DNA from: a virus
Lineage: Duplodnaviria; Heunggongvirae; Uroviricota; Caudoviricetes
Reading direction: 5' to 3' (one strand)
Length of the DNA stretch: 13,879 nucleotides
Virus record (IMG/VR): IMGVR_UViG_2703718788_000009
The notes beneath the pieces were generated by a model, which did not search any database, was not told the origin of the DNA, and saw only the letters and a program-made list of their open reading frames with translations. Positions 2,940 to 13,504 of this stretch are shown here, piece by piece. The position numbers and the translations under genes are program-made. The first letter of the stretch is position 1. Every line of letters begins with the position of its first letter.

Positions 2940-3392
2940 TCAGCCTCTCCCAACATTTGACCAGTATTTGATTGCACCGATCAAATCATCATAGTGGCGC
3001 ATTGCATCATTGAAGCCTTTATAGCTTGCCCATTGTGGTGAAACTTTGTTATTGCTGAATTGCCCACTAATCAGGATAGTCTCCAAAATGTCGGCGTATC
3101 GCTTGCCAATTCGCTTTCTGACGGCCTCAGAGCTCCCACCCTTTACGATTGCATTAATCAGGGCTTTTGTGTGTCTCAGGCTCTCATAGAGCATTGCAGC
3201 GTGGGCAGATTCCATAAAGGAGCGCTTAGGCAGATCACCCCACCCCTCAGAATGGATAGCCGCCAGTGTGGCGTAATTCAGGCCGCTATAGTGTTTCCCG
3301 TCATCCCAGCCAACCGCTACACCTTCCATCTGTGAGAGCTCTTTATGCAGCTTATCCATCATGCGCTTGTCTATGGTGCAACGGACTTTCAT
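2940..3392 (-). CDS. hypothetical protein, possibly virion morphogenesis or head-tail joining
   Basis: 150-aa ORF whose ATG overlaps the upstream gene's stop in an ATGA arrangement (translational coupling). It is the last gene of the minus-strand structural operon. The functional guess rests on context only. Confidence 0.5.
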   Translation of the reverse strand: MKVRCTIDKRMMDKLHKELSQMEGVAVGWDDGKHYSGLNYATLAAIHSEGWGDLPKRSFMESAHAAMLYESLRHTKALINAIVKGGSSEAVRKRIGKRYADILETILISGQFSNNKVSPQWASYKGFNDAMRHYDDLIGAIKYWSNVGRG

Positions 3393-4168
3393 TTTGTAGC
3401 ATCCTTGGCAAACTTGGCCTGCCTTTGCTGTTTCCAGGCGCTATCAGCTGCGTCATAGTTGCCGCCGTTTTCCTCTAACAACGTGTTAAAATCTTTAGTC
3501 TTAGCCGATGGGGTGTTGGTTGAGTTCCCTACGTTGCTATTCTTCTCAGCACTGTTAACAGCACCCTTTTGCTGTGTTTTGTTCACCTTCTTGCTGTTAG
3601 TGAAGACTCCGGCATTTTCGACCATCTTCACCTTGAAGGTGCGGAATTCTTCAAAGGTGCAATCAATAGTGATGCAGTCACCAGAGGAAGAGCTACGCTT
3701 AACTTCACATTTCGTCATGATGAAGTTCTCAAGGAGTCCGGCATCTTCACTTACCAGGCTAACAAGCTGGCGCTTGTCTCTCATTTCCATAAGTGCCTGA
3801 ACAGCGGCGGCAGGGCGCATAGATTCACGGGGATTATCTGGATCAGTGTTCCGGTCAATGTAGTTCTCTTTCCGGATGATATGAGGAGAAGAGGTAACAA
3901 TACCCGTAAAGCTGACAGATTTATCTTTAATGACGGCATGGTCTGACATGGTGGTGCCATCCTCGACCGCATAGCTCGATTTCTCAACAGGGAACGAATA
4001 GCTGACATCAGAGATAGAGTCAAAGAAGATAGCCACGTTATCGGTATAGTTGAAGCCATCCATTATATTTTTGTTTTGTGAATATCCCCCACACATAACA
4101 GTGAATGCAGGAGATCTCGATTCAGCTTGTTTTGCAGCTGTCAGAGCATCACTAGCCATATTAAACAT
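3389..4168 (-). CDS. hypothetical protein, possibly a virion structural component
   Basis: 259-aa ORF. A GGAGG sits 1 nt before the first ATG and about 10 nt before the second ATG (4159), so the true start is probably 4159 (MASDALT...). Ser/Thr/Asn-rich, with a Lys/Asn-rich low-complexity C-terminus. Confidence 0.55.
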   Translation of the reverse strand: MFNMASDALTAAKQAESRSPAFTVMCGGYSQNKNIMDGFNYTDNVAIFFDSISDVSYSFPVEKSSYAVEDGTTMSDHAVIKDKSVSFTGIVTSSPHIIRKENYIDRNTDPDNPRESMRPAAAVQALMEMRDKRQLVSLVSEDAGLLENFIMTKCEVKRSSSSGDCITIDCTFEEFRTFKVKMVENAGVFTNSKKVNKTQQKGAVNSAEKNSNVGNSTNTPSAKTKDFNTLLEENGGNYDAADSAWKQQRQAKFAKDATK

Positions 4169-4679: not shown

Positions 4680-5729
4680 TTATTTAGCCTTGGCTTTTGC
4701 CAGAGCAGCGGCGGCGGCGTTTTTAACACTCACTTTAACCACAACTTCGGGCATCATGTTCATGAAAGCATAAGAGGATTCAACGAAGATTTCTCGTTTG
4801 GCTCTGGACTCTTCCATATACATGAAAGCTTCACGTGCAGCGCCGTTTGCAAGCTTCAGGTTGCGAGCGCAAGGGCCGAAAAATTGAGTATAAACGCCCA
4901 CCATATCGCCTAACGCATGCGGCTGGAACTGTGGGACCAGATAAGCAGTATTCTCTGGCAGACTATCCATTTGCACCACACGCAGAGCTAAGCCTGGAAT
5001 GCGGAAAGTCGGGAAGCCCGGCAGAATATCCTCAGGGAACATCAGACCTTTATCAGTGATATTCTGATTGCCGAACAACAGCACTTTTCGCAACAGTTCA
5101 TCAGTCTGAATTGCAGCAAAGAGCTCAGCACGGCAGAACAGGGTGAAACCACGCAGAGCGCGAACGACACCACGCTGTTTAACCTTGCTCAGCGCAACCA
5201 GGTCCTGCAGCTGTTTAAGGATATCTTTAGCTAAATCCACTTCTGAGGTGGTTTGCTGTGCGCCCAGCAGTTCGCACACATTCAGTTCTTTACCCTTGGT
5301 GAGGATAATTTTGTTCTCAAAGAGAGCAAGCTGGCGTGCTTCTTCATGGGTCTGGCGTAAGCCTTCACCAAGCTGAATAACACGACGAGCGGTTACAGAC
5401 TCTAAATTCTCTTCGGAATCTTTGCCCGGAACACGGATACCCTGCCAGTCAGAAGGATAAATAGCACTTGATGCGGCAGTGAATGCCATATCACCCGTGC
5501 CCGTTTCACGCTCATCTGCGGTAATGGTAGCCATCTGTTCACCGTAGCGCGGATACTGACCGAAAGCGGTTTGTTTCACCTGGCGAACTTTGTCATATTC
5601 AAATTTAAAGGTATTGCACAGAGCAGTAGTGTTGAAGATATCCATTGCTGAAATAATCTGGTTATCCAGCGGGATGTCTTTAATCAAGCCACACAGATCG
5701 CGGACTTCGAATTCTTTTTTCATCTCCAA
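4680..5729 (-). CDS. major capsid protein (lambda gpE-like)
   Basis: The likely start is the ATG at 5723 with AAGGAGG 6 nt upstream; the track start at 5729 is TTG. The segment SLPENTAYLV and the C-terminal 'REIFVESSYAFMNMMPEVVVKVSV' resemble lambda gpE 'FLPDNTMVLG' and 'REFTMIQSAPLMLLADPDEFVSV', recalled from memory. About 347 aa, preceded by a small beta-rich protein. Confidence 0.7.
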   Translation of the reverse strand: MEMKKEFEVRDLCGLIKDIPLDNQIISAMDIFNTTALCNTFKFEYDKVRQVKQTAFGQYPRYGEQMATITADERETGTGDMAFTAASSAIYPSDWQGIRVPGKDSEENLESVTARRVIQLGEGLRQTHEEARQLALFENKIILTKGKELNVCELLGAQQTTSEVDLAKDILKQLQDLVALSKVKQRGVVRALRGFTLFCRAELFAAIQTDELLRKVLLFGNQNITDKGLMFPEDILPGFPTFRIPGLALRVVQMDSLPENTAYLVPQFQPHALGDMVGVYTQFFGPCARNLKLANGAAREAFMYMEESRAKREIFVESSYAFMNMMPEVVVKVSVKNAAAAALAKAKAK

Positions 5730-7157: not shown

Positions 7158-7418
7158 ATGACGGGGGCTAAAGATATCAGGAGATTGAGGGAAGAGCTGA
7201 TAGCTGAAATTAAAGCTAAGGCAAAGCAAATGGAGATAGCCGCACAAATGGATGTAGCGGAACAGATGTACAAGATGGTTGAAGAGGGAACACCACGGCA
7301 GGTTATAGCAAAAACATTTGGTGTGGGGATCGCCACCGTGCACAGAAGGCTGAAAGCCTATGCCGACTACCACAATATCGAGAGAAAGGAGGATGGGAGA
7401 TTTAAGAAGAATAAATAG
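7158..7418 (+). CDS. small DNA-binding protein with a helix-turn-helix motif
   Basis: 86-aa ORF with SD 'gagagg'. The motif TPRQVIAKTFGVGIATVHRRLK looks like an HTH of the resolvase or IS3 OrfA type; the N-terminus looks coiled-coil. Confidence 0.6.
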   Translation: MTGAKDIRRLREELIAEIKAKAKQMEIAAQMDVAEQMYKMVEEGTPRQVIAKTFGVGIATVHRRLKAYADYHNIERKEDGRFKKNK

Positions 7419-7475: not shown

Positions 7476-8162
7476 ATGTTTAAAGGTCTTGTTGTTACGC
7501 TATTGGCTTGCATTGTATTTGGTCCATGGGTGTTAGTAATTGCTTTACCTATATTGCTGATCATGAGCTTAGGGAATGATATTAAAAAGCTGCAAAAGCT
7601 GCATGCACAATATAAGGAGAATCCCGGCGCGTTCATGGTAAGTCTGGTTATAGTCGCGGGGCTTATTGGATGGGTGTATTTCTCCCTCCCCACAGGAAAT
7701 ACAACTGCAAATGTAGAAGAGGCCGCAGTGGTAGAGGAAAAAGCCAACAAAGGATTCAGATTTATTGTTGGTGTGGATAGCCCAGTATATGGCCCTGAAG
7801 CTGTGGATCCTGCAATGGTGCATGCCTGGTTATGGAACAGAACGGAGAAAGGTAGCTGCAATCAACTAAAAGCGAGCGCCAACATAGAAGAGGAAGGAGA
7901 TACATTTTTCGCATGGTGTAAAGATATCAAAGGCAATGATAGGTGGTTTACCATTACCAATATTGTAGGTGTTTCCCGTTCACTAATGAATCACCCTGAG
8001 GCTAAGAATCCGCTAACAGGTGTCCGATTAAAAGATGGCCCAATATGGATCGATTTATACGGAACACAAATCACTGAGGGCGTGAACAGCGATATCCAGG
8101 ATAAGCTGAAAGACATAAATAATCAGTATGGTGCGATTGTTGAAACCTCTCCTATGAAATAA
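7476..8162 (+). CDS. membrane protein with two N-terminal transmembrane helices and a roughly 150-aa C-terminal domain, possibly superinfection exclusion
   Basis: 228-aa ORF with SD 'agagg'. Hydrophobic segments at about residues 5..30 and 53..70, separated by a Lys-rich loop. Function is a hypothesis. Confidence 0.6.
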   Translation: MFKGLVVTLLACIVFGPWVLVIALPILLIMSLGNDIKKLQKLHAQYKENPGAFMVSLVIVAGLIGWVYFSLPTGNTTANVEEAAVVEEKANKGFRFIVGVDSPVYGPEAVDPAMVHAWLWNRTEKGSCNQLKASANIEEEGDTFFAWCKDIKGNDRWFTITNIVGVSRSLMNHPEAKNPLTGVRLKDGPIWIDLYGTQITEGVNSDIQDKLKDINNQYGAIVETSPMK

Positions 8163-8182
8163 CCACACCTACCCAACCTACC

Positions 8183-8216
8183 AGGGCCACCACTTAGGAT
8201 GGCCCTTTTTATTTAT
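8183..8216 (+). terminator. rho-independent terminator of the 6934..8162 module
   Basis: 7-bp stem agggcca / tggccct with a 10-nt loop, followed by 'ttttatttat', 21 nt after the stop codon. Confidence 0.7.
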
Positions 8217-8220
8217 GTGC

Positions 8221-8280
8221 TATTTAATACCCATTTATCCCCTATTTAATGCCTATTTATTGATTTAATCCGTTTTATGC
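8221..8280. repeat. phased TATTTA(A/T) repeats at roughly 11-bp spacing; possibly bent DNA or an architectural-protein site
   Basis: tatttaatacc / atttatcccc / tatttaatgcc / tatttattgat / ttaatccg / ttttatgcc in succession. Confidence 0.4.
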
Positions 8281-8340
8281 CACAACCGCCCGGTTGACAG
8301 AGTAAGAGAGAGGGTGTAACCCTTTTTCGTAATACTAATA

Positions 8341-8360
8341 AAATCAATAAGTTAGCTTAA
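8341..8360. repeat. copy 2 of 20-bp repeat 'aaatcaataagttagcYtaa'
   Basis: See 2449..2469. Confidence 0.7.
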
Positions 8361-9368
8361 TAAGCCTTTTCTCTATTTTTGTCAAATTTAACATACCCTA
8401 AAAAACTGCAAAATCTGACTGCAAGATTATCTGCAGCTGGATTTCTTACACCTCAATTTGTGGTATCACCCTGACTAGTTTGTGCATAAAATGAACAGTT
8501 TTTAACATTTCCTATTCACCTGGTAACCACACAAAAAGCTAAAAACGAGGCACAGATAATCTTAGAGGCCTGTTTTCTTGTTATCACTATGGGAACGTCG
8601 TAGAAGTGATTTTGATGAAAGATGACCTACCCTATTACACCCCCATTTTTTGTTATCACAATTGCATCCTGTGCGGTATATGGCTGTGTGCTGAAAGCGG
8701 TCTTGGGTGTGGGTGTCAGAAATATCCATTAGCGGTATTAATACCCGTCAGATGTTCGTCTGAGGTGCCAGGCAGGCGCTCCCCCACCTCCCTTTTTTCT
8801 TCTAACAATTCTCAAATATCACACCACTGCCCACCACGTTGCTATTATGTTAATTCTTAAGCTTTGCTGTATGTTGTGCACATTATTTATTCAGGTGCGT
8901 GTACGTAAATTCTGGGCCTCCTTATCATGATTTTTAAATCAGATTTTGTAGTGCGCTTTATTAGTGTAGATAAGATCTATTATGTTAAATGCAATTTTCC
9001 CAACCCTTCAAATCAATGACTTACATGTAAGCATGCACTAACACCCCACACAGCACATTAGACGTGTAGATGTCTATATCCCACATTTTTGATTGTTTTG
9101 TAGTCATTCCCCTGATCATTTAACCAGTATAGTTTGCTATCTGCAGACCACAAAATCGGAATTTACATCTGATTAACATAATCTGTTAGCATGATCACCA
9201 TTACCCACACAACAATAACCCCATGCAAGCCTCTTTAGGCAATTTATCGGCGTGTTGGTGTGAACAGTCTTTCATGTTCTTTATGTATTCATGACTGCAA
9301 GGAATGTATTCATTGGCCTGTGTGGGGGAAGGATGGACTGCCCCAGGGGCCATACTTATGATGCCCGG

Positions 9369-9404
9369 TCAACATAAGTGTTGATAAAATCAAGGGGTGT
9401 TGAT
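9369..9404. promoter_or_regulatory. pair of adjacent inverted repeats (TCAACA-N4-TGTTGA and ATCAA-N6-TTGAT); candidate operator
   Basis: Both have perfect arms; they sit just upstream of the iteron cluster. Confidence 0.4.
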
Positions 9405-9426
9405 CTGCATATTTCCCACACATGAG

Positions 9427-9456
9427 AGGAAATCAGAGCAAAGAGAGAGGAGAGAG
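9427..9456. repeat. polypurine (GA-rich) tract
   Basis: A 30-nt run of almost only A and G on the plus strand. Confidence 0.5.
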
Positions 9457-9465
9457 GTTTGTTAG

Positions 9466-9520
9466 TCAAAATCAAGTCACATTAGAGTCAAATCAAGTCA
9501 AATCAGATGCAATCAATCCC
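9466..9520. repeat. cluster of 'aatcaagtca'-type direct repeats
   Basis: gtcaaaatcaagtca, gtcaaatcaagtca, aatcagatgca, aatcaatccc in tandem. Confidence 0.6.
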
Positions 9521-9521
9521 C

Positions 9522-9586
9522 CACCTGTTGGGATTTCCCACATGTTCAACCATACACAGGAGCTAACCTGTTGGGATTTCCTACAC
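9522..9586. repeat. two copies of 'acctgttgggatttccYaca', 45 bp apart
   Basis: 9522..9541 and 9567..9586 are near-identical. Confidence 0.7.
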
Positions 9587-9639
9587 CTCTTGCACATACC
9601 CCGGAAGATTTTTCCGGTGTGCCATCTTTGCAGGCTCCA

Positions 9640-9807
9640 ACCTGTGAAGAATTTTCACACCTGTAAATCCATACAGCACGGTAAAAACTACCGCACCACC
9701 TGTCAAAATATTTTACTACCCCACCAATAATACGGCCCATACCTGTAAAATATTTTTACTACTACCTGTCAAAATCTTTTACTACTACCTGTAAAAATAT
9801 TTGACAC
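9640..9807. repeat. iteron array with ACCTGT core (part of the candidate replication origin)
   Basis: ACCTGT occurs at 9640, 9659, 9698, 9741, 9764 and 9787, plus 9523 and 9566 in the preceding repeat. The last four sit in units of about 23 bp, 'acctgt(c)aaaatattttactac', three of them directly tandem. Confidence 0.7.
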
Positions 9808-9839
9808 TAATAGATAAAGTAACAGACCACACAATAGAT

Positions 9840-9865
9840 CCCCCCCTAACCCCCCCCCCAGGGGG
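9840..9865. repeat. homopolymer tracts C7-TAA-C10-A-G5, bracketed by GATC sites
   Basis: Read directly: gatcccccccctaacccccccccaggggg, with GATC at 9837..9840 and 9876..9879. Confidence 0.8.
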
Positions 9866-9902
9866 AATGGGGAGGGATCAGAGAGTGGGGAAGGTTTATC
9901 AA

Positions 9903-10027
9903 TATATCAAATTGATATACTTAGCTAGATGTATCAATTAATACACTTAAAGGTGAGCAATGCTTAGCTAGATGTATCAATCCGATACACTTAGAATATT
10001 CTAGATGTATCAATTAATACACTTAAA
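9903..10027. repeat. 17-bp perfect palindrome followed by three direct repeats of about 30 bp
   Basis: Palindrome tatatcaa-a-ttgatata at 9903..9919; repeats 'ctagatgtatcaat..atacactta' at 9920..9951, 9963..9994 and 9999..10027. Confidence 0.75.
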
Positions 10028-10906
10028 TCACGTAACTTATTGTATTTATTAAGAAAAGTCATCTACCTATATATACTACTGATTCGCCTCCGCTCATCAT
10101 TAGTATGGTGTAACTGATTCATGCTTCGCTTACGCTCACATTCATCTACTTACACCCCCTTATCTGAATTGAACATTCCCGTCCAATCCAGCTAAGAGAA
10201 TTGATTGAACATTACCTAACATCCGTTAGCTAACATTCTAATCAATTAACTACTTAAACACTTCCACACCTTCCGGTGGTGCCAAGTAACCTGGCATGGT
10301 GGGAAAAGATTCTGCCGTTTTAGGTAGAATTGATTTCCCACAAATAGTAAGTGTCGGCCCTTCAATGTCACTCTCCTATGAGGGGAGAGATGACGGGCCT
10401 CCTGTGTGGGTGAGTATCGGAGCAGTCTGTGAAGTATGAGCAGGCTGTGAGATACGCTACTGTATATCTGCGTAGAACAGCCTCCGCTGTTTACGCTCTT
10501 TGTGTGGTCCGGCGAATGCGTCAGCATGAGGCCCACATGTGGACCGCTGCCGAAAGCTTGCCAGCGCCGGAAGGAGGCAGCAAAGAGTCTCCCGCGCTCA
10601 TGTGTGGGCGTATACGTAAGATATACATTCATAAATCCAATCCTAGGCCCCTAAATGGCCTTCTGGCTGCATTAACCTGTGTGAGTAGTGCAATTGCATT
10701 ACCTGATGCTTAAATCGCGTTGTAGGGCCTCTCATAGAGAATTTAACTATCAAGATAAAAATTGCAGATCGGTCTATTGACAATCTTATTGCATAAATGC
10801 TATAAGTTATTCTGGTTTTGACACGGTAGGGGCCATTAATAATGCTTACCCCCTTTGCTGTGGACTTGCTTGCACCTATAGCACACCTAAATGATAATAA
10901 TTCTCA

Positions 10907-10935
10907 TTGACAATTGGTTGACAATATGATAAGAT
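10907..10935 (+). promoter_or_regulatory. candidate sigma70 promoter (TTGACA-N17-TAAGAT) upstream of a small ORF
   Basis: Consensus -35 at 10907..10912, a 4-of-6 -10 at 10930..10935, and a second overlapping TTGACA at 10918. Confidence 0.35.
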
Positions 10936-10970
10936 TATAAATAGGGGGAGAAACAGATCCGGAGGTCAAT

Positions 10971-11120
10971 GTGGAAATTACTGATGCAATAGCGATCATC
11001 AACCTGGCTGTACTGTGGTGCGGTGTTGCCTACATAGCCGGAGTAACTGCAATAGACAATCTTGAAGAAAAAATGATAGATAAATACAAAAAGATTGTTG
11101 ACAATTTGACGAATGTTTGA
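10971..11120 (+). CDS. small membrane protein (49 aa, GTG start), possibly holin-like or toxin-like
   Basis: GGAGG 5 nt upstream of the GTG; VEITDAIAIINLAVLWCGVAYIAGVTAIDNLEEKMIDKYKKIVDNLTNV has one transmembrane-like helix and a charged C-terminal tail. Absent from the ORF track. Confidence 0.3.
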   Translation: MEITDAIAIINLAVLWCGVAYIAGVTAIDNLEEKMIDKYKKIVDNLTNV

Positions 11121-11126
11121 TAAAAT
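11098..11126 (+). promoter_or_regulatory. strong sigma70 promoter (TTGACA-N17-TAAAAT) for the leader and Rep operon
   Basis: -35 at 11098..11103, a 17-nt spacer, -10 at 11121..11126. Confidence 0.6.
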
Positions 11127-11176
11127 ATAAAGCATAGGGTAATTCTCAGCATGTGAATTTTCCTTAAACAGACTAG

Positions 11177-11206
11177 CGGGGCTTGTCTTGAGTCCCGTTT
11201 CTTTTT
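11177..11206 (+). terminator. intrinsic terminator or attenuator in the leader between the promoter and the first operon gene
   Basis: Stem cggggc / gtcccg (one G-U pair) with a 9-nt loop, followed by 'tttcttttt'. It lies about 45 nt after the predicted start and 44 nt before the ATG at 11250. Confidence 0.55.
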
Positions 11207-11249
11207 AAACCTACATCGCACAGGCGATGAGCTGACAGGAGATTGAATC

Positions 11250-11495: not shown

Positions 11496-12410
11496 ATGAA
11501 TATTGAGTCTGTTTTTAATATAACTTTAAATGATGATCCTAGTATCCTTTTGCTGCCAATGCTCATAAATAAATCTGGACTATTAAAAAGAGGCGACGCA
11601 AGGGATATCTATATTTACATGTGGAATACTTACTATCTCCACGCTAAAAAAGAGGCCGCCAAGGTGTTCAGCAAGAAGACTAAAGGAAGAAGCCTCAGCC
11701 AGGATATGAAAAACTCCATCAGAAAAGAGTGTTTTGCTATTAAAGATAAAGATTCCTGTGTGGAGATCTCTTATAAGGATATAGAGGAAAGAATTGGAAT
11801 ACTGCGACCAAATGCAGTAAGGGCAATTAAAAAGCTGGAATCTGAAGGAATTATCACCTGCCTTAAAAAAGGCAATAAGCATAACCCTTATGCATCATGG
11901 CAAATTAATGTCGGAATCTTTGAAATGATGGAAAGAGTAGGGATTGAAAACCTCATTGGGTGGGATCTCTTAAAACCATATTGGAAGAAAGAACAGGAAG
12001 CAGCCGGAAGAGGGGAGGGGGCCAAAGCTCCACAGGAAGCTCCAAAACAAGCCGCACAGCAGCCTGAAGACACACCCGAAGGGGTGACCGTAGGTCACCT
12101 GGCTAAGCCAGCGAAAGAGTCCAAAGTGGTGCAATTCCCTTCTGTGAAAGATAAAGACGTTAGCGTAGAGCACAACTCTTATTCCGAAAGTGTGACAACG
12201 TCACCTGTTAAGGCAAACAAGAAGGAGGCATCTAAAGTGATAGATATTTCTTCTTTTATGGCAGATGAAGATGATACGCAAGATGTGTGGTATACACCTT
12301 CAGAAAATGATTATAGTGGTAGTGGTGGTTATGATCCTTATGGCTATGATGAGGATGAATACAACCCATTTGAAGATGAATATACAAATGATTCCGCTAT
12401 CCCTTATTAA
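11496..12410 (+). CDS. putative replication initiator (winged-helix, lambda-O/RepA-like N-terminal domain) with a long disordered acidic C-terminal tail
   Basis: 304-aa ORF with SD 'agagg'. The segment 'VEISYKDIEERIGILRPNAVRAIKKLESEGIITC' resembles the winged-helix DNA-binding domain of lambda O 'RITDSQLSEITKLPVKRCNEAKLELVRMNII', recalled from memory. The C-terminal 140 aa are low-complexity and end in ...EDEYTNDSAIPY. Confidence 0.55.
   Translation: MNIESVFNITLNDDPSILLLPMLINKSGLLKRGDARDIYIYMWNTYYLHAKKEAAKVFSKKTKGRSLSQDMKNSIRKECFAIKDKDSCVEISYKDIEERIGILRPNAVRAIKKLESEGIITCLKKGNKHNPYASWQINVGIFEMMERVGIENLIGWDLLKPYWKKEQEAAGRGEGAKAPQEAPKQAAQQPEDTPEGVTVGHLAKPAKESKVVQFPSVKDKDVSVEHNSYSESVTTSPVKANKKEASKVIDISSFMADEDDTQDVWYTPSENDYSGSGGYDPYGYDEDEYNPFEDEYTNDSAIPY
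12072..12120. repeat. 50-bp repeat, copy B, embedded in the Rep-like coding sequence
   Basis: Matches 6842..6890; encodes ...TPEGVTVGHLAKPAKE... in the disordered tail. Confidence 0.8.
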
Positions 12411-12498: not shown

Positions 12499-12987
12499 AT
12501 GTTCAAATCTGATCTTTCTGATTCCCAATTTGAAAAACTGGTAGCACTGCAGAAATATCTCCCCAGTGATGATCAACCAACACGACAGGCTAAACACTTA
12601 TTAGTCGAGGGCTTTACCCCTGAATTCGTGGCGGAATACACAGGCGTTAAACTTGAGAAAGTCCAAAAACTATATAATGAGTCCTGGAATCCACGGTGTC
12701 GAGTTCCCCTCAGTGTCTACAACGAAATAGACAGAGATAGAAATGTCTTCGAAGATCGCCGCCGCAAATCTCTTTTAATGTGGAATTGTGGGATGAATAT
12801 TGAAGAGATAGCAAAAGAATTAAAAGTAACCTGCTTTCATATCTGGGGCTTGTTGAGTGAAATCCTGCCACGTAAGGAGCTTAATCAACGTTTGCCTAAG
12901 CCCGGCAGTCGTGCTTATCGCGAATTTATATTCATCTACCGCCGCCATAGCAATAAAGTCCGGAAAGCAATGGCCCAGAAAGCCTAA
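12499..12987 (+). CDS. DNA-binding protein with two predicted helix-turn-helix motifs (regulator or small-terminase-like; unresolved)
   Basis: 162-aa ORF with SD 'ggag'. HTH-like segments FTPEFVAEYTGVKLEKVQKL and MNIEEIAKELKVTCFHIWGLL; basic C-terminus. Confidence 0.55.
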   Translation: MFKSDLSDSQFEKLVALQKYLPSDDQPTRQAKHLLVEGFTPEFVAEYTGVKLEKVQKLYNESWNPRCRVPLSVYNEIDRDRNVFEDRRRKSLLMWNCGMNIEEIAKELKVTCFHIWGLLSEILPRKELNQRLPKPGSRAYREFIFIYRRHSNKVRKAMAQKA

Positions 12988-13060: not shown

Positions 13061-13504
13061 ATGTCTCAAATCGCTAAATTACTATCCCAGGTTATCAAAG
13101 CTTTCGACGCTGAAGATTCAAAAGTTCGCCAGGATCTTTTAGATGGCAAGTTTACCAACACCCTGGCATTTACCCGTGACAAAGAGCACTTCTTAAAACA
13201 CAGACACCACGCTTTTGCTGAATGCAAGTCCGCTAATGGTGATGTTTTCTATGTCGATTTGGTGGTTATGGCATGTAGGCTGTGGATGATTCAGGACCTT
13301 ATGCGCCAACACGGTGATGATCCTCTTATCAGCATGTGGAACAGCGCCCAGGATGGCTTTGTGATTGCTGCCTTATCCAAATCAATGATTGAGGCAGAAG
13401 GGGCAAGCCTTCAGAACATGGCAGATCTCTTTGAAATAAGCGTAGGAATGATGCAGACCATGCTCCAAGCTGTCAAACCTCTCAAACTGGTTAATCTTGA
13501 TTAA
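13061..13504 (+). CDS. hypothetical protein (147 aa), probably alpha-helical
   Basis: ORF with SD 'aagga' 7 nt upstream; no recognisable motif. Confidence 0.5.
   Translation: MSQIAKLLSQVIKAFDAEDSKVRQDLLDGKFTNTLAFTRDKEHFLKHRHHAFAECKSANGDVFYVDLVVMACRLWMIQDLMRQHGDDPLISMWNSAQDGFVIAALSKSMIEAEGASLQNMADLFEISVGMMQTMLQAVKPLKLVNLD

Follow-up and report, generated by a model that had tools for sequence, protein, structure and literature searches.

G+C-rich sequences are known to flank the A+T-rich regions of replication origins; a 2016 review that refers to Brendler 1991 (for P1) and to Vlijm 2015 says of their role that it "has remained unclear" (PMC5043065). In the oriV of the PromA plasmid pMOL98, iterons are accompanied by 27 bp of AT-rich and 29 bp of GC-rich sequence (PMC9499019), the oriV of IncQ (RSF1010-type) plasmids has G+C-rich and A+T-rich regions (PMC7557826), and the unwinding element of the IncP plasmid RK2 consists of 13-mers like those of oriC, with one flank that has no protein-binding site (PMC5043065). 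In the "GC-rich cluster plus DnaA-trios" element of bacterial oriC, the unwinding region by the initiator boxes directly adjoins a short G+C-rich sequence (PMC8034659; PMC5043065, citing Richardson 2016). The A+T-rich region of ori-lambda is strand-asymmetric, measures 38-40 bp and comes after four inverted-repeat iterons (PMC3349717, PMC5043065). The locus considered here is a cluster of C and G homopolymers beside initiator repeats in the predicted replication-origin region of a phage-like Escherichia coli plasmid.

As in ori-lambda, four inverted-repeat iterons are followed at this locus by an A+T-rich, asymmetric region, and the Rep proteins of the plasmid family match the PHROG "replication initiation O-like". 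A palindrome to the right of the A+T-rich region is a further feature of ori-lambda that has its like here. Ori-lambda lies inside the O gene, whereas the plasmid origin is found 1.6 kb upstream of rep, within 3 kb of non-coding DNA; nucleotide similarity between the two is not detectable, and we know of no homopolymer C/G block in ori-lambda. P1 oriR, with GATC-containing 7-bp repeats and a G+C-rich stretch by five iterons, has in common with this locus the adjacency of three parts: initiator repeats, A+T-rich DNA carrying short tandem repeats, and G+C-rich DNA. The five GATC sites of P1 oriR must be methylated for function and its G+C stretch is a spacer of precise length, whereas the window has two GATC sites only at this locus, which are not conserved among relatives, and the overall length varies by up to 8 bp within the plasmid family; the iterons of the family, moreover, are palindromic and its Rep is lambda-O-like rather than RepA-like. 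The likeness to pMOL98 and IncQ is that of an iteron origin in which an A+T-rich region adjoins a G+C-rich region of about 28-30 bp, but IncQ has its A+T region separated from the iterons by the G+C block. RK2, IncQ and pMOL98 have initiators of different families (TrfA, RepC), iterons that are direct repeats bound by monomers, unlike those of the plasmid family, and G+C-rich regions of mixed sequence in place of homopolymer runs in inverted arrangement. The likeness to the GC cluster of oriC is that of a short G+C-rich sequence abutting an unwinding region by initiator sites; the oriC trios are DnaA-based and 3-nt periodic, whereas positions 9800-9900 of the plasmid have no DnaA box with at most one mismatch and no trio periodicity.

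The window, by which is meant the whole stretch of 13,879 bases that was analysed, is a complete 13.9 kb phage-like E. coli plasmid (LOFY01000001.1). Its family is common in E. coli and apparently has no published description, none having been found in the papers searched. Proteins of the family have exact copies in 400-660 blocks of a public assembly collection, and those encoded at 7158-7418, 12499-12987 and 13061-13504 show 94-100% identity from one family member to another. The plasmid codes for a major capsid protein, a tape measure protein, a Dit-like protein and a tail-completion protein; the nine open reading frames of the window that were scanned include neither a terminase nor a portal protein, and therefore the plasmid is probably helper-dependent. 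Since relatives of the capsid and tape measure proteins among the matches listed from phage records are all distant (27.5% identity or less), no helper phage can be named. Comparison of the origin region (in near mode) and of a 101-nt core (in distant mode) with 50,697 phage records gave zero nucleotide matches, and the core matched only plasmids of this family, and no chromosome, among 5,426 complete E. coli genomes. Scans of IMG/VR by pattern and by protein found no relatives, and in an Rfam E-value scan of the whole window the tract had no match, the only match being a sub-threshold ctRNA_p42d at 2485-2525. Three 21-nt pattern matches (L011, L012, L015) were dropped as chance occurrences in unrelated G+C-rich contigs.

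The preliminary description had singled out long C and G tracts, flanked by GATC sites, as atypical for this sequence. The tracts are real: positions 9836-9880 read AGATC-C6-TAA-C10-A-G5-AAT-GGGG-A-GGG-ATC, which is laid out as GATC (9837)-C7-TAA-C10-A-G5-AAT-GGGGAGGG-GATC (9876), with C7 at 9840-9846, C10 at 9850-9859 and G5 at 9861-9865. The left GATC (9837-9840) shares the first C of C7, and the right GATC occupies 9876-9879. On the plus strand, the G+C-rich block can be divided into a half of pyrimidine runs that ends with the first G run (C7-TAA-C10-A-G5, 9840-9865) and a purine-rich half (AAT-GGGGAGGG-ATC-AGAGAGT-GGGG-AAGG-TTT, 9866-9897) that holds the right GATC and is near-invariant in the family. 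No other C or G run of at least seven occurs in the window. Simulating the window 300 times with a first-order Markov model gave, per sequence, 0.013 runs of at least ten C or G and about 1.0 of at least seven; thus C10 is atypical, but C7 by itself is not. The clustering of C7, C10, G5, G4, G3 and G4 within 56 nt is clearly non-random, and the arrangement of C runs and G runs is conserved in 31 other elements. Even a variant with other linkers (TATAAT, AACAA; L013, L025, L032) keeps runs of C5, C5, G5-6 and G4. Predicted duplex stability peaks at the tracts (-48.5 kcal per 30 bp; the mean for the window is -40.3, exceeded here by about 2.3 sd), with stability troughs on both flanks.

The tracts lie inside a conserved core of about 90 bp (9807-9897) that was found in 32 relatives, in every one of which it forms a conserved island with variable blocks on either side. 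Its order is four palindromic iterons, an A+T-rich stretch of 32-35 bp with three 13-mer-like repeats, and the C/G block. The iterons that had been noted next to the tracts are four plus-strand repeats of 23-25 nt at 9695-9808 (type D, ACCTGTCAAAATATTTTACTAC-like, each with internal dyad symmetry; copies at 9695-9719, 9738-9762, 9761-9785 and 9784-9808). To their left, at 9523-9696 on the same strand, are single "orphan" copies of iteron types that other family members use as fourfold arrays: type A at 9523-9542 and 9566-9585 (a tandem array in L018/L004), type B/F at 9600-9620 (array of F in L006/L030), type C/G at 9640-9659 (array of G in L008/L046) and an E-like type at 9677-9696 (array of E in L010/L019). 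The A+T-rich stretch, which is purine-skewed, is a candidate DNA unwinding element of the class-1 origin (9804-9840, minus strand). It contains three tandem matches to the oriC 13-mer GATCTNTTNTTTT, spaced by 12 bp and starting at 9804, 9816 and 9828 with 3, 2 and 2 mismatches; such a triple repeat is expected 0.007 times per window and was seen once, exactly between the iterons and the tracts. Predicted stability is low beside the iterons, where 30-bp segments that begin at 9790-9810 have -32 to -35 kcal, versus the mean of -40.3, and 9808-9839 sits in this trough. In all 30 class-1 elements (those with the Rep class described below), a G+C-rich stretch (9840-9895 in the window) abuts the A+T-rich region. 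Depending on the element, 62-69 bp separate the last iteron from the end of the block, a spread of up to 8 bp. In the window, a T-to-C change (AACAGA, 9822-9827) falls in a column that does not vary across the 30 class-1 relatives.

That the tracts belong to a replication-origin region, beside initiator repeats, is borne out by co-variation of iteron type with the recognition helix of Rep in 30 elements. Six iteron types correspond one-to-one with six recognition-helix variants of the class-1 Reps, which match the PHROGs "replication initiation protein" (5e-12) and "O-like" (1e-7), and the pairing survives where the remainder of Rep is shuffled. Type-D arrays co-occur with the helix V/FSRPTV/II in L017, L014, L021, L022, L028 and L043, and type-D iterons are thereby predicted to be the binding sites of class-1 Reps with SRPT in the recognition helix. 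A co-variation of iteron type with the variable 228-aa protein (7476-8162) was also considered and rejected, as the types do not track that protein. The window encodes no class-1 Rep with an SRPT helix. Its Rep (304 aa, 11496-12410, plus strand; recognition segment ILRPNAVRAIKKL) is a class-2 winged-helix initiator by alignment and by its match to the PHROG "replication initiation O-like" (E = 4e-5), and this exact Rep sequence occurs in the collection only on the window's own contig. The core is present in 30 of 30 class-1 elements but in only two of nine class-2 elements, the seven others lacking it while their capsid and tail genes are intact. Homology of the window to class-1 elements ends at 9897 in every class-1 relative, and a plus-strand class-2 repeat module (9897-10030) stands in place of the class-1 right-hand module. 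It consists of a palindrome (TATCAATATATCAAATTGATATA, 9897-9919) and three copies of CTAGATGTATCAAT..ATACACTTA (9925-9951, 9968-9994, 10001-10027), which are the likely sites of the window's own Rep. The nine class-2 elements have three recognition-helix variants, each with a different repeat type in three to four copies, and the class-2 helix co-varies with these right-hand repeats, not with the left array. Beyond them, an A+T-rich stretch (10030-10080, plus strand; -32 to -33 kcal per 30 bp) that is conserved in all class-2 elements beside the anchor CTGATTCGCCTCCGCTCATC is a candidate unwinding element of the class-2 origin. The window's Rep therefore probably does not use the adjacent left iterons, and the tract-bearing origin may be orphaned in the window; the helix ILRPNAVR nevertheless has R-P in common with the D-type class-1 helix (LRPN versus SRPT), and given this the left array may be used after all.

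The lengths of the tracts differ among relatives, as had been proposed for homopolymers prone to slippage. Across 32 elements the lengths are C5-7, C4-10 and G4-6, with the second C run mostly 5-7, and form 23 haplotypes; eight A-type elements with identical flanks of about 90 nt have eight different haplotypes. Such drift is as slippage predicts and would be the expected behaviour of slippage-prone homopolymers. An impression that tract changes compensate one another, given by four A-type totals that were all 67, was dropped when eight elements gave 65-68. Also set aside as evidence of slippage was the trimeric record CP043822, in which a comparison of two copies showed 37 short indels, 36 of them of a single base, and four substitutions; the indels fall almost entirely in short base runs over the whole unit, a pattern characteristic of long-read error. 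The extremes of the family are the two class-2 elements in which the core persists, the window with the longest second C run (C10) and L010 with the shortest (C4), a pattern in two elements that was noticed afterwards.

The explanation that best fits these observations, held with slightly more belief than doubt, is that the C/G tracts are a G+C-rich block bounding the A+T-rich unwinding element of an iteron-type (theta) origin of 13-14 kb phage-like E. coli plasmids. A winged-helix, lambda-O-like Rep would bind the four palindromic iterons and place the DNA under stress, upon which the A+T-rich, purine-skewed stretch of 32-35 bp would melt; the G+C block (about 55 bp, C runs and then G runs), being stiff and very stable, would confine the melting and set the right edge of the bubble. 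The composition of the block would seem to be more important than its exact length, so that the homopolymers would be free to drift by slippage within limits. In the window, recombination would have swapped everything to the right of 9897 for a second origin module and its Rep, leaving the tract-bearing origin probably orphaned or merely auxiliary, which may account for the presence there of the longest C run in the family. A simple G+C clamp leaves unexplained the kept order of C, C, then G, G, G, G, and likewise the near-invariant sequence of the purine-rich half.

Other functions of the tracts have to be weighed against a melting boundary. The preliminary description suggested a slipped-strand, Dam-sensitive switch, in which tract length would toggle a nearby gene or the firing of the origin, or would adjust copy number. 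The tracts are indeed hypermutable compared with their flanks (23 haplotypes in 32 elements, eight of eight among A-type elements), and the block is flanked in the window by two GATC sites. Poly-C/G of 7-10 nt that varies among close relatives is a likeness to the contingency loci of Neisseria, Haemophilus and Campylobacter. Contingency tracts lie in reading frames or in the spacer between -35 and -10 elements, however, and the plasmid tract lies in neither: a 46-aa open reading frame (9801-9941) is broken by the length differences and by the break in homology at 9897, so no conserved reading frame crosses the tract; a consensus scan found no promoter-like site at the tract and three in the region, against 3.1 expected by chance; and the closest genes called lie about 1.1 kb away on the right (a 49-aa open reading frame, 10971-11120) and 1.7 kb away on the left. 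With neither a conserved reading frame nor a promoter to toggle, with an "off" origin that would be expected to lead to plasmid loss rather than to reversible switching, and with the variation inside CP043822 attributable to sequencing error, a switch is very unlikely. Nor does Dam sensitivity gain from the GATC sites, genuine as they are: the two lie 39 bp from each other, GATC occurs 50 times in the window where base composition predicts 52.5, and the left site is kept in 14 of 32 relatives (absent in 18) and the right in 26 (absent in six). A related speculation, to which little probability is attached, is that slippage changes the length of an inverted repeat of C and G runs and so tunes the ease of unwinding, and with it copy number or competitive strength; together with the iteron "library" carried by every family member, this would be part of an arms race among co-resident phage-like plasmids. 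It is also possible, but rather improbable, that the selected feature is a structure, namely a "slippery" inverted repeat of C and G runs that forms a hairpin or cruciform in many registers, and so tolerates changes of length, and that signals helicase loading or priming or blocks forks in one direction, or else a G-quadruplex or i-motif in the unwound strand. All 32 elements preserve the order C-C-G-G, even the TATAAT/AACAA variant, whose C5-AACAA-G5-6 would make a clean stem of 5-7 bp with a normal loop; the predicted hairpin of the window runs from GATC to GATC; length variation is tolerated; and the plus strand has four G runs of at least three at 9861-9893 (G5-AAT-G4-A-G3-N10-G4), a G-quadruplex-type motif that is conserved in most elements. 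The fold-back that had been foreseen for C10 and G5 exists on paper, with a minimum free energy of -14.2 kcal/mol as single-stranded DNA, but is no stronger than that of dinucleotide shuffles (z = -0.41), 67 of 200 of which fold at least as stably, and z ranges from -1.06 to +0.55 over five elements. Stem pairs that are all C:G can yield no covariation signal, cruciform extrusion is disfavoured for an imperfect repeat with a 3x3 internal loop, the last loop of the quadruplex motif is 10 nt long, C runs on the same strand compete with G-quadruplex folding, and in the H-type elements (L020, L029, L045, L047) the third and fourth of the G runs are missing.

The tight conservation of the purine-rich half (GGGGAGGGATCAGAGAGTGGGGAAGG, including AGAGAGTGGGG), far greater in sequence than that of the C runs or the A+T stretch, would be accounted for if it were the binding site of a protein, either a host factor or the conserved 86-aa HTH, 162-aa or 147-aa protein of the plasmid, the C runs being incidental. 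The 94-100% identity of these plasmid proteins is as expected of partners to an invariant site, but seven class-2 elements have the proteins and not the site, the sequence differs at the same position in H-type elements, and no known motif was recognised in it, neither a DnaA box (at most one mismatch) nor an IHF consensus being present in 9800-9900; a protein site is unlikely. A packaging signal (cos or pac), read by the terminase of a helper phage that packages the capsid-encoding plasmid, would suit an element that has structural genes and no terminase or portal among its nine scanned open reading frames, and G+C-rich cohesive-end sites are common in cos phages. Such a signal is most improbable: the core follows the class of Rep and not the structural genes, its absence from seven of nine class-2 elements that retain capsid and tail genes argues against a packaging site, and it matches none of the phage records and, in E. 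coli, family plasmids only and no chromosome. Finally, the block might be an intrinsic terminator or insulator of leftward (minus-strand) transcription that shields the iterons from read-through. The consensus scan found one minus-strand terminator-like site (9867-9840, tail ATCTATTGTG), against 1.5 expected by chance; only five of its ten stem pairs are G-C (the scan allows G-T), its U tract is poor, and the hairpin has no T run after it on the plus strand. A far better minus-strand hairpin (GCCTAAAGAG-loop-CTCTTTAGGC, then TTTCATTTG) lies about 60 bp further right in class-1 relatives and would make a second terminator redundant, so that termination is a highly doubtful function for the tracts.

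Most simply, then, the tracts are a further example of a known feature of iteron origins, the G+C-rich flank of an unwinding element, and their context, a common plasmid family that codes for capsid and tail proteins, is of greater interest than the tracts themselves. For the role of G+C-rich flanks the family offers an unusually clean natural experiment, with dozens of near-identical origins that differ almost solely in tract length, natural variants that have no block at all, and two classes of Rep and origin on one backbone.

At 9836-9880, the window reads AGATC-C6-TAA-C10-A-G5-AAT-GGGG-A-GGG-ATC-A, with C7 at 9840-9846, C10 at 9850-9859, G5 at 9861-9865 and GATC sites at 9837 and 9876, and the preliminary description of these C and G tracts and their GATC flanks is confirmed. 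In a scan of the whole window, no C or G run other than C7 and C10 reaches a length of seven. When the window was simulated 300 times with a first-order Markov model, the sequences contained an average of 0.013 runs of at least ten and approximately one run of at least seven; thus, C10 and the clustering are atypical, but C7 alone is not. The nearest-neighbor stability profile has a peak over the tracts, of -48.5 kcal per 30 bp (window mean -40.3, standard deviation 3.5), with troughs on either side.

NCBI contig LOFY01000001.1 (assembly GCA_001608235.1) has the same sequence as the window, which represents an entire plasmid from a common E. coli family of 13-14 kb. The members are circular and 13.2-13.9 kb in length, and approximately 45 of them were retrieved for comparison. 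The genes of the window encode a tape measure protein (309-2438), a tail-completion protein (2940-3392), a Dit-like protein (3389-4168), a major capsid protein (4680-5729), the winged-helix initiator Rep (11496-12410) and several small conserved proteins, and the family also encodes a 111-aa protein; a scan of nine ORFs revealed neither a terminase nor a portal, and known phages are only remotely similar, with at most 27.5% amino acid identity among the matches listed. In the assembly collection, the exact 147-aa, 150-aa and 86-aa proteins of the window are indexed in 658, 403 and 655 blocks, respectively, mostly on 10-20 kb contigs, and the exact Rep sequence is on no other contig in a collection of 15 billion proteins. 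No relatives were found in IMG/VR or in phage records, and a literature search found no description of the family, which may represent either a phage satellite carried on a plasmid or a phage-plasmid that has become defective. Some relatives are located on larger contigs (L031/L042 on NTNY01000053.1, L041 on DAYHIJ010000020.1, L022 on JAWROW010000003.1) as neighbors of aph, a Tn3-type transposase, tetR/MFS, beta-lactamase or a microcin B17-like operon (McbB, YcaO), and the tape measure gene is truncated in L041 and L042. Just downstream of this gene in the window, an Rfam match to ctRNA_p42d on the minus strand (2485-2525; 23.6 bits versus a gathering score of 50, E = 0.25) is probably due to chance.

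The tracts lie in a region (8163-11249) where the longest ORF is at most 128 aa and a single short gene is called (49 aa, 10971-11120). Comparison with relatives divides this region into a conserved block of approximately 1.3 kb (8243-9542), a variable repeat block (9543-9806), a conserved core that includes the tracts (9807-9897), a variable block (9898 to approximately 10500) and conserved sequence that resumes from approximately 10500. Adjoining the core on the left in each element is a palindromic repeat of approximately 20 bp in four tandem copies (9695-9808 in the window). The core begins with the invariant TAATAGATAAA, followed by an A+T-rich, purine-skewed stretch of 32-35 bp in which the oriC 13-mer GATCTNTTNTTTT has three minus-strand matches with 12-bp spacing (9804, 9816, 9828), a triple that is expected 0.007 times per window and seen once; then come the C runs and a nearly invariant purine-rich half, GGGGAGGGATCAGAGAGTGGGGAAGG. 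The 8243-9542 block, which has 88-97% identity across the family, no consistent ORF and no Rfam match, contains purine-rich GAGAGG runs (9425-9457) and short repeats of the AGTCAAAT type (9465-9515), and may act as a centromere-like site or encode an RNA. In every family member, single orphan copies of the iteron types found in the four-copy arrays of other members precede its own array (9523-9696 in the window). The cumulative GC skew of the window has its minimum at approximately 10,000-10,400 (the 10001-10400 bin), a few hundred bases to the right of the tracts, which is consistent with an origin nearby, although gene orientation confounds this signal.

Rep is mosaic: its N-terminal, recognition-helix and C-terminal modules are exchangeable, and there are at least nine helix variants and two classes of the protein. 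Class-1 Reps (288-306 aa) match the PHROG families "replication initiation protein" (5e-12) and "replication initiation O-like" (1e-7). Across 30 class-1 elements, there is a one-to-one correspondence between recognition-helix segment and type of four-copy left array, even where the C-terminal half of Rep differs: KDRGKI with type A, SRPT with D, TEKT with E, SDRKIRD with F, SDRKIIE with G and TPKT with H. None of the 30 lacks the core or the short conserved right-hand module, and the homology of the window to every class-1 relative ends exactly at 9897. The nine class-2 Reps (those of the window and the relatives L010, L024, L026, L031, L036, L040, L048 and L049) are unlike class 1 in N-terminus and helix, and their right-hand module is always different too, in which a single repeat type, matched to the helix, is present three or four times: three copies of TATCAAYATATCAANNNGATATA with ILQPNIAR, four of GTGTGCGRTWRCAGCACA with IARTDALK, and three of CTAGATGTATCAAT..ATACACTTA (9925-10027) with ILRPNAVR, which is unique to the window. 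L010 and L026 have a common helix and unlike left arrays, which suggests that the left arrays are not used by class-2 Reps. The core is missing from seven of the nine class-2 elements, where the left repeats are joined straight to the class-2 module. The pairing of helix with array, together with the presence of the core in all class-1 elements and its loss from most class-2 elements, argues that the core, including the C/G tracts, is a component of the class-1 origin, in support of the suggested connection to origin function. The window and L010 are recombinants that keep the core beside a class-2 module. Class-2 modules likewise carry single orphan copies of repeat types; in general, orphan copies could be decoys or handcuffing sites in the competition of co-resident relatives, or recombination scars. 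Class-1 relatives have an invariant hairpin with a 10-bp stem, GCCTAAAGAG-(variable loop)-CTCTTTAGGC, approximately 60-110 bp to the right of the G block (for example, 4830-4860 of the relative L017), with TTTCATTTG next on the minus strand, which resembles a terminator of leftward transcription; this hairpin and the conserved AGGGAAAAGCTTAACC..CACAAATG are absent from the window, where the class-2 module, within or beside which the GC skew minimum falls, takes their place.

The tracts were predicted to be prone to slippage, and their lengths do differ among the 32 core-bearing elements compared: 5-7 for the first C run, 4-10 for the second (4 in one element, 5 in six, 6 in fifteen, 7 in six, 8 in two, 9 in one and 10 in one) and 4-6 for the first G run, making 23 distinct haplotypes, with the caveat that the data are mostly from NCBI, ENA and Logan assemblies and some length calls may be assembly error. 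No two of the eight A-type elements whose flanks of approximately 90 nt are identical have a haplotype in common. Such diversity beside identical flanks indicates that the tracts are far more mutable than their surroundings, as homopolymers should be, and that an exact length is not required. The G block ends 62-69 bp from the last iteron, or 72 bp from it in a variant whose linkers are TATAAT and AACAA. Variation within the RefSeq "plasmid" NZ_CP043822.1 (39.6 kb, a head-to-tail trimer of a 13.5 kb unit with some genes broken) was attributed to long-read error and not to slippage. Between the two copies compared there are four substitutions and 37 short indels, of which 36 involve one base; nearly all the indels fall in short base runs across the unit. 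The trimer is either a multimer that was read through or an artefact of long-read assembly, and is unfit for homopolymer comparisons. The extremes of the second C run, C10 in the window and C4 in L010, belong to the two core-retaining class-2 elements, and in the window a column of the A+T-rich stretch that is invariant in 30 of 30 class-1 elements carries a T-to-C change; these observations, post hoc and from two elements, fit relaxed constraint on an origin without its Rep. The proposal that length variation operates a phase-variable switch fared less well: the sole ORF that spans the tract (46 aa, 9801-9941) is not conserved, no promoter-like site is located at the tract (the region has three in total, versus 3.1 expected by chance), and an origin switched off should result in plasmid loss, not reversible switching. 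Nor was the suggested Dam sensitivity upheld, as the left GATC is present in 14 and the right in 26 of 32 relatives, without clustering of sites; the window contains 50 GATC versus 52.5 expected.

The tracts are best interpreted as a G+C-rich flank beside the unwinding element in a class-1 iteron origin, with moderate confidence because the function rests on comparative inference. The iteron origin of pMOL98 has 19-bp iterons, 27 bp of AT-rich sequence and 29 bp of GC-rich sequence (PMC9499019); a G+C-rich stretch adjoins the A+T-rich region of the iteron origin in IncQ (PMC7557826) and, by the account of Brendler 1991 given in PMC5043065, that of P1; and an analogous sequence adjoins the DnaA-trios of oriC (PMC8034659). 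G+C-rich flanks promote supercoiling-driven melting of the A+T region according to Vlijm 2015 as cited in a review (PMC5043065), which states that their role in origins "has remained unclear." With four palindromic iterons ahead of an A+T-rich, strand-asymmetric stretch of approximately 35 bp, and with an O-like initiator, the origin of the plasmid family is closest to ori-lambda (PMC3349717, PMC5043065). Its distinguishing features are a block made of homopolymer runs in an inverted arrangement and of no fixed length, dispensable GATC sites, and a location far from rep.

The order C, C, G, G, which is retained even in the variant with TATAAT and AACAA linkers, would also be accounted for by a structural element, either a register-tolerant hairpin or cruciform or a plus-strand G-quadruplex. 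The fold-back envisaged in the preliminary description is possible (-14.2 and -14.9 kcal/mol for the two strands as single-stranded DNA), but it is no stronger than in dinucleotide shuffles (z = -0.41 and -0.53) and so is indistinguishable from an effect of composition; a structural role is considered unlikely. A putative protein-binding site in the invariant purine-rich half would account for the conservation of that sequence, and is thought quite unlikely. A terminator is disfavored, as is a packaging site: the core has been lost from elements that retain all structural genes, is in no phage record, and among E. coli replicons is found only on these plasmids. As the G+C-rich flank of an unwinding element, the tracts of this plasmid would probably belong to an origin without its cognate initiator, and the origin region of the plasmid family is modular and "iteron-collecting."
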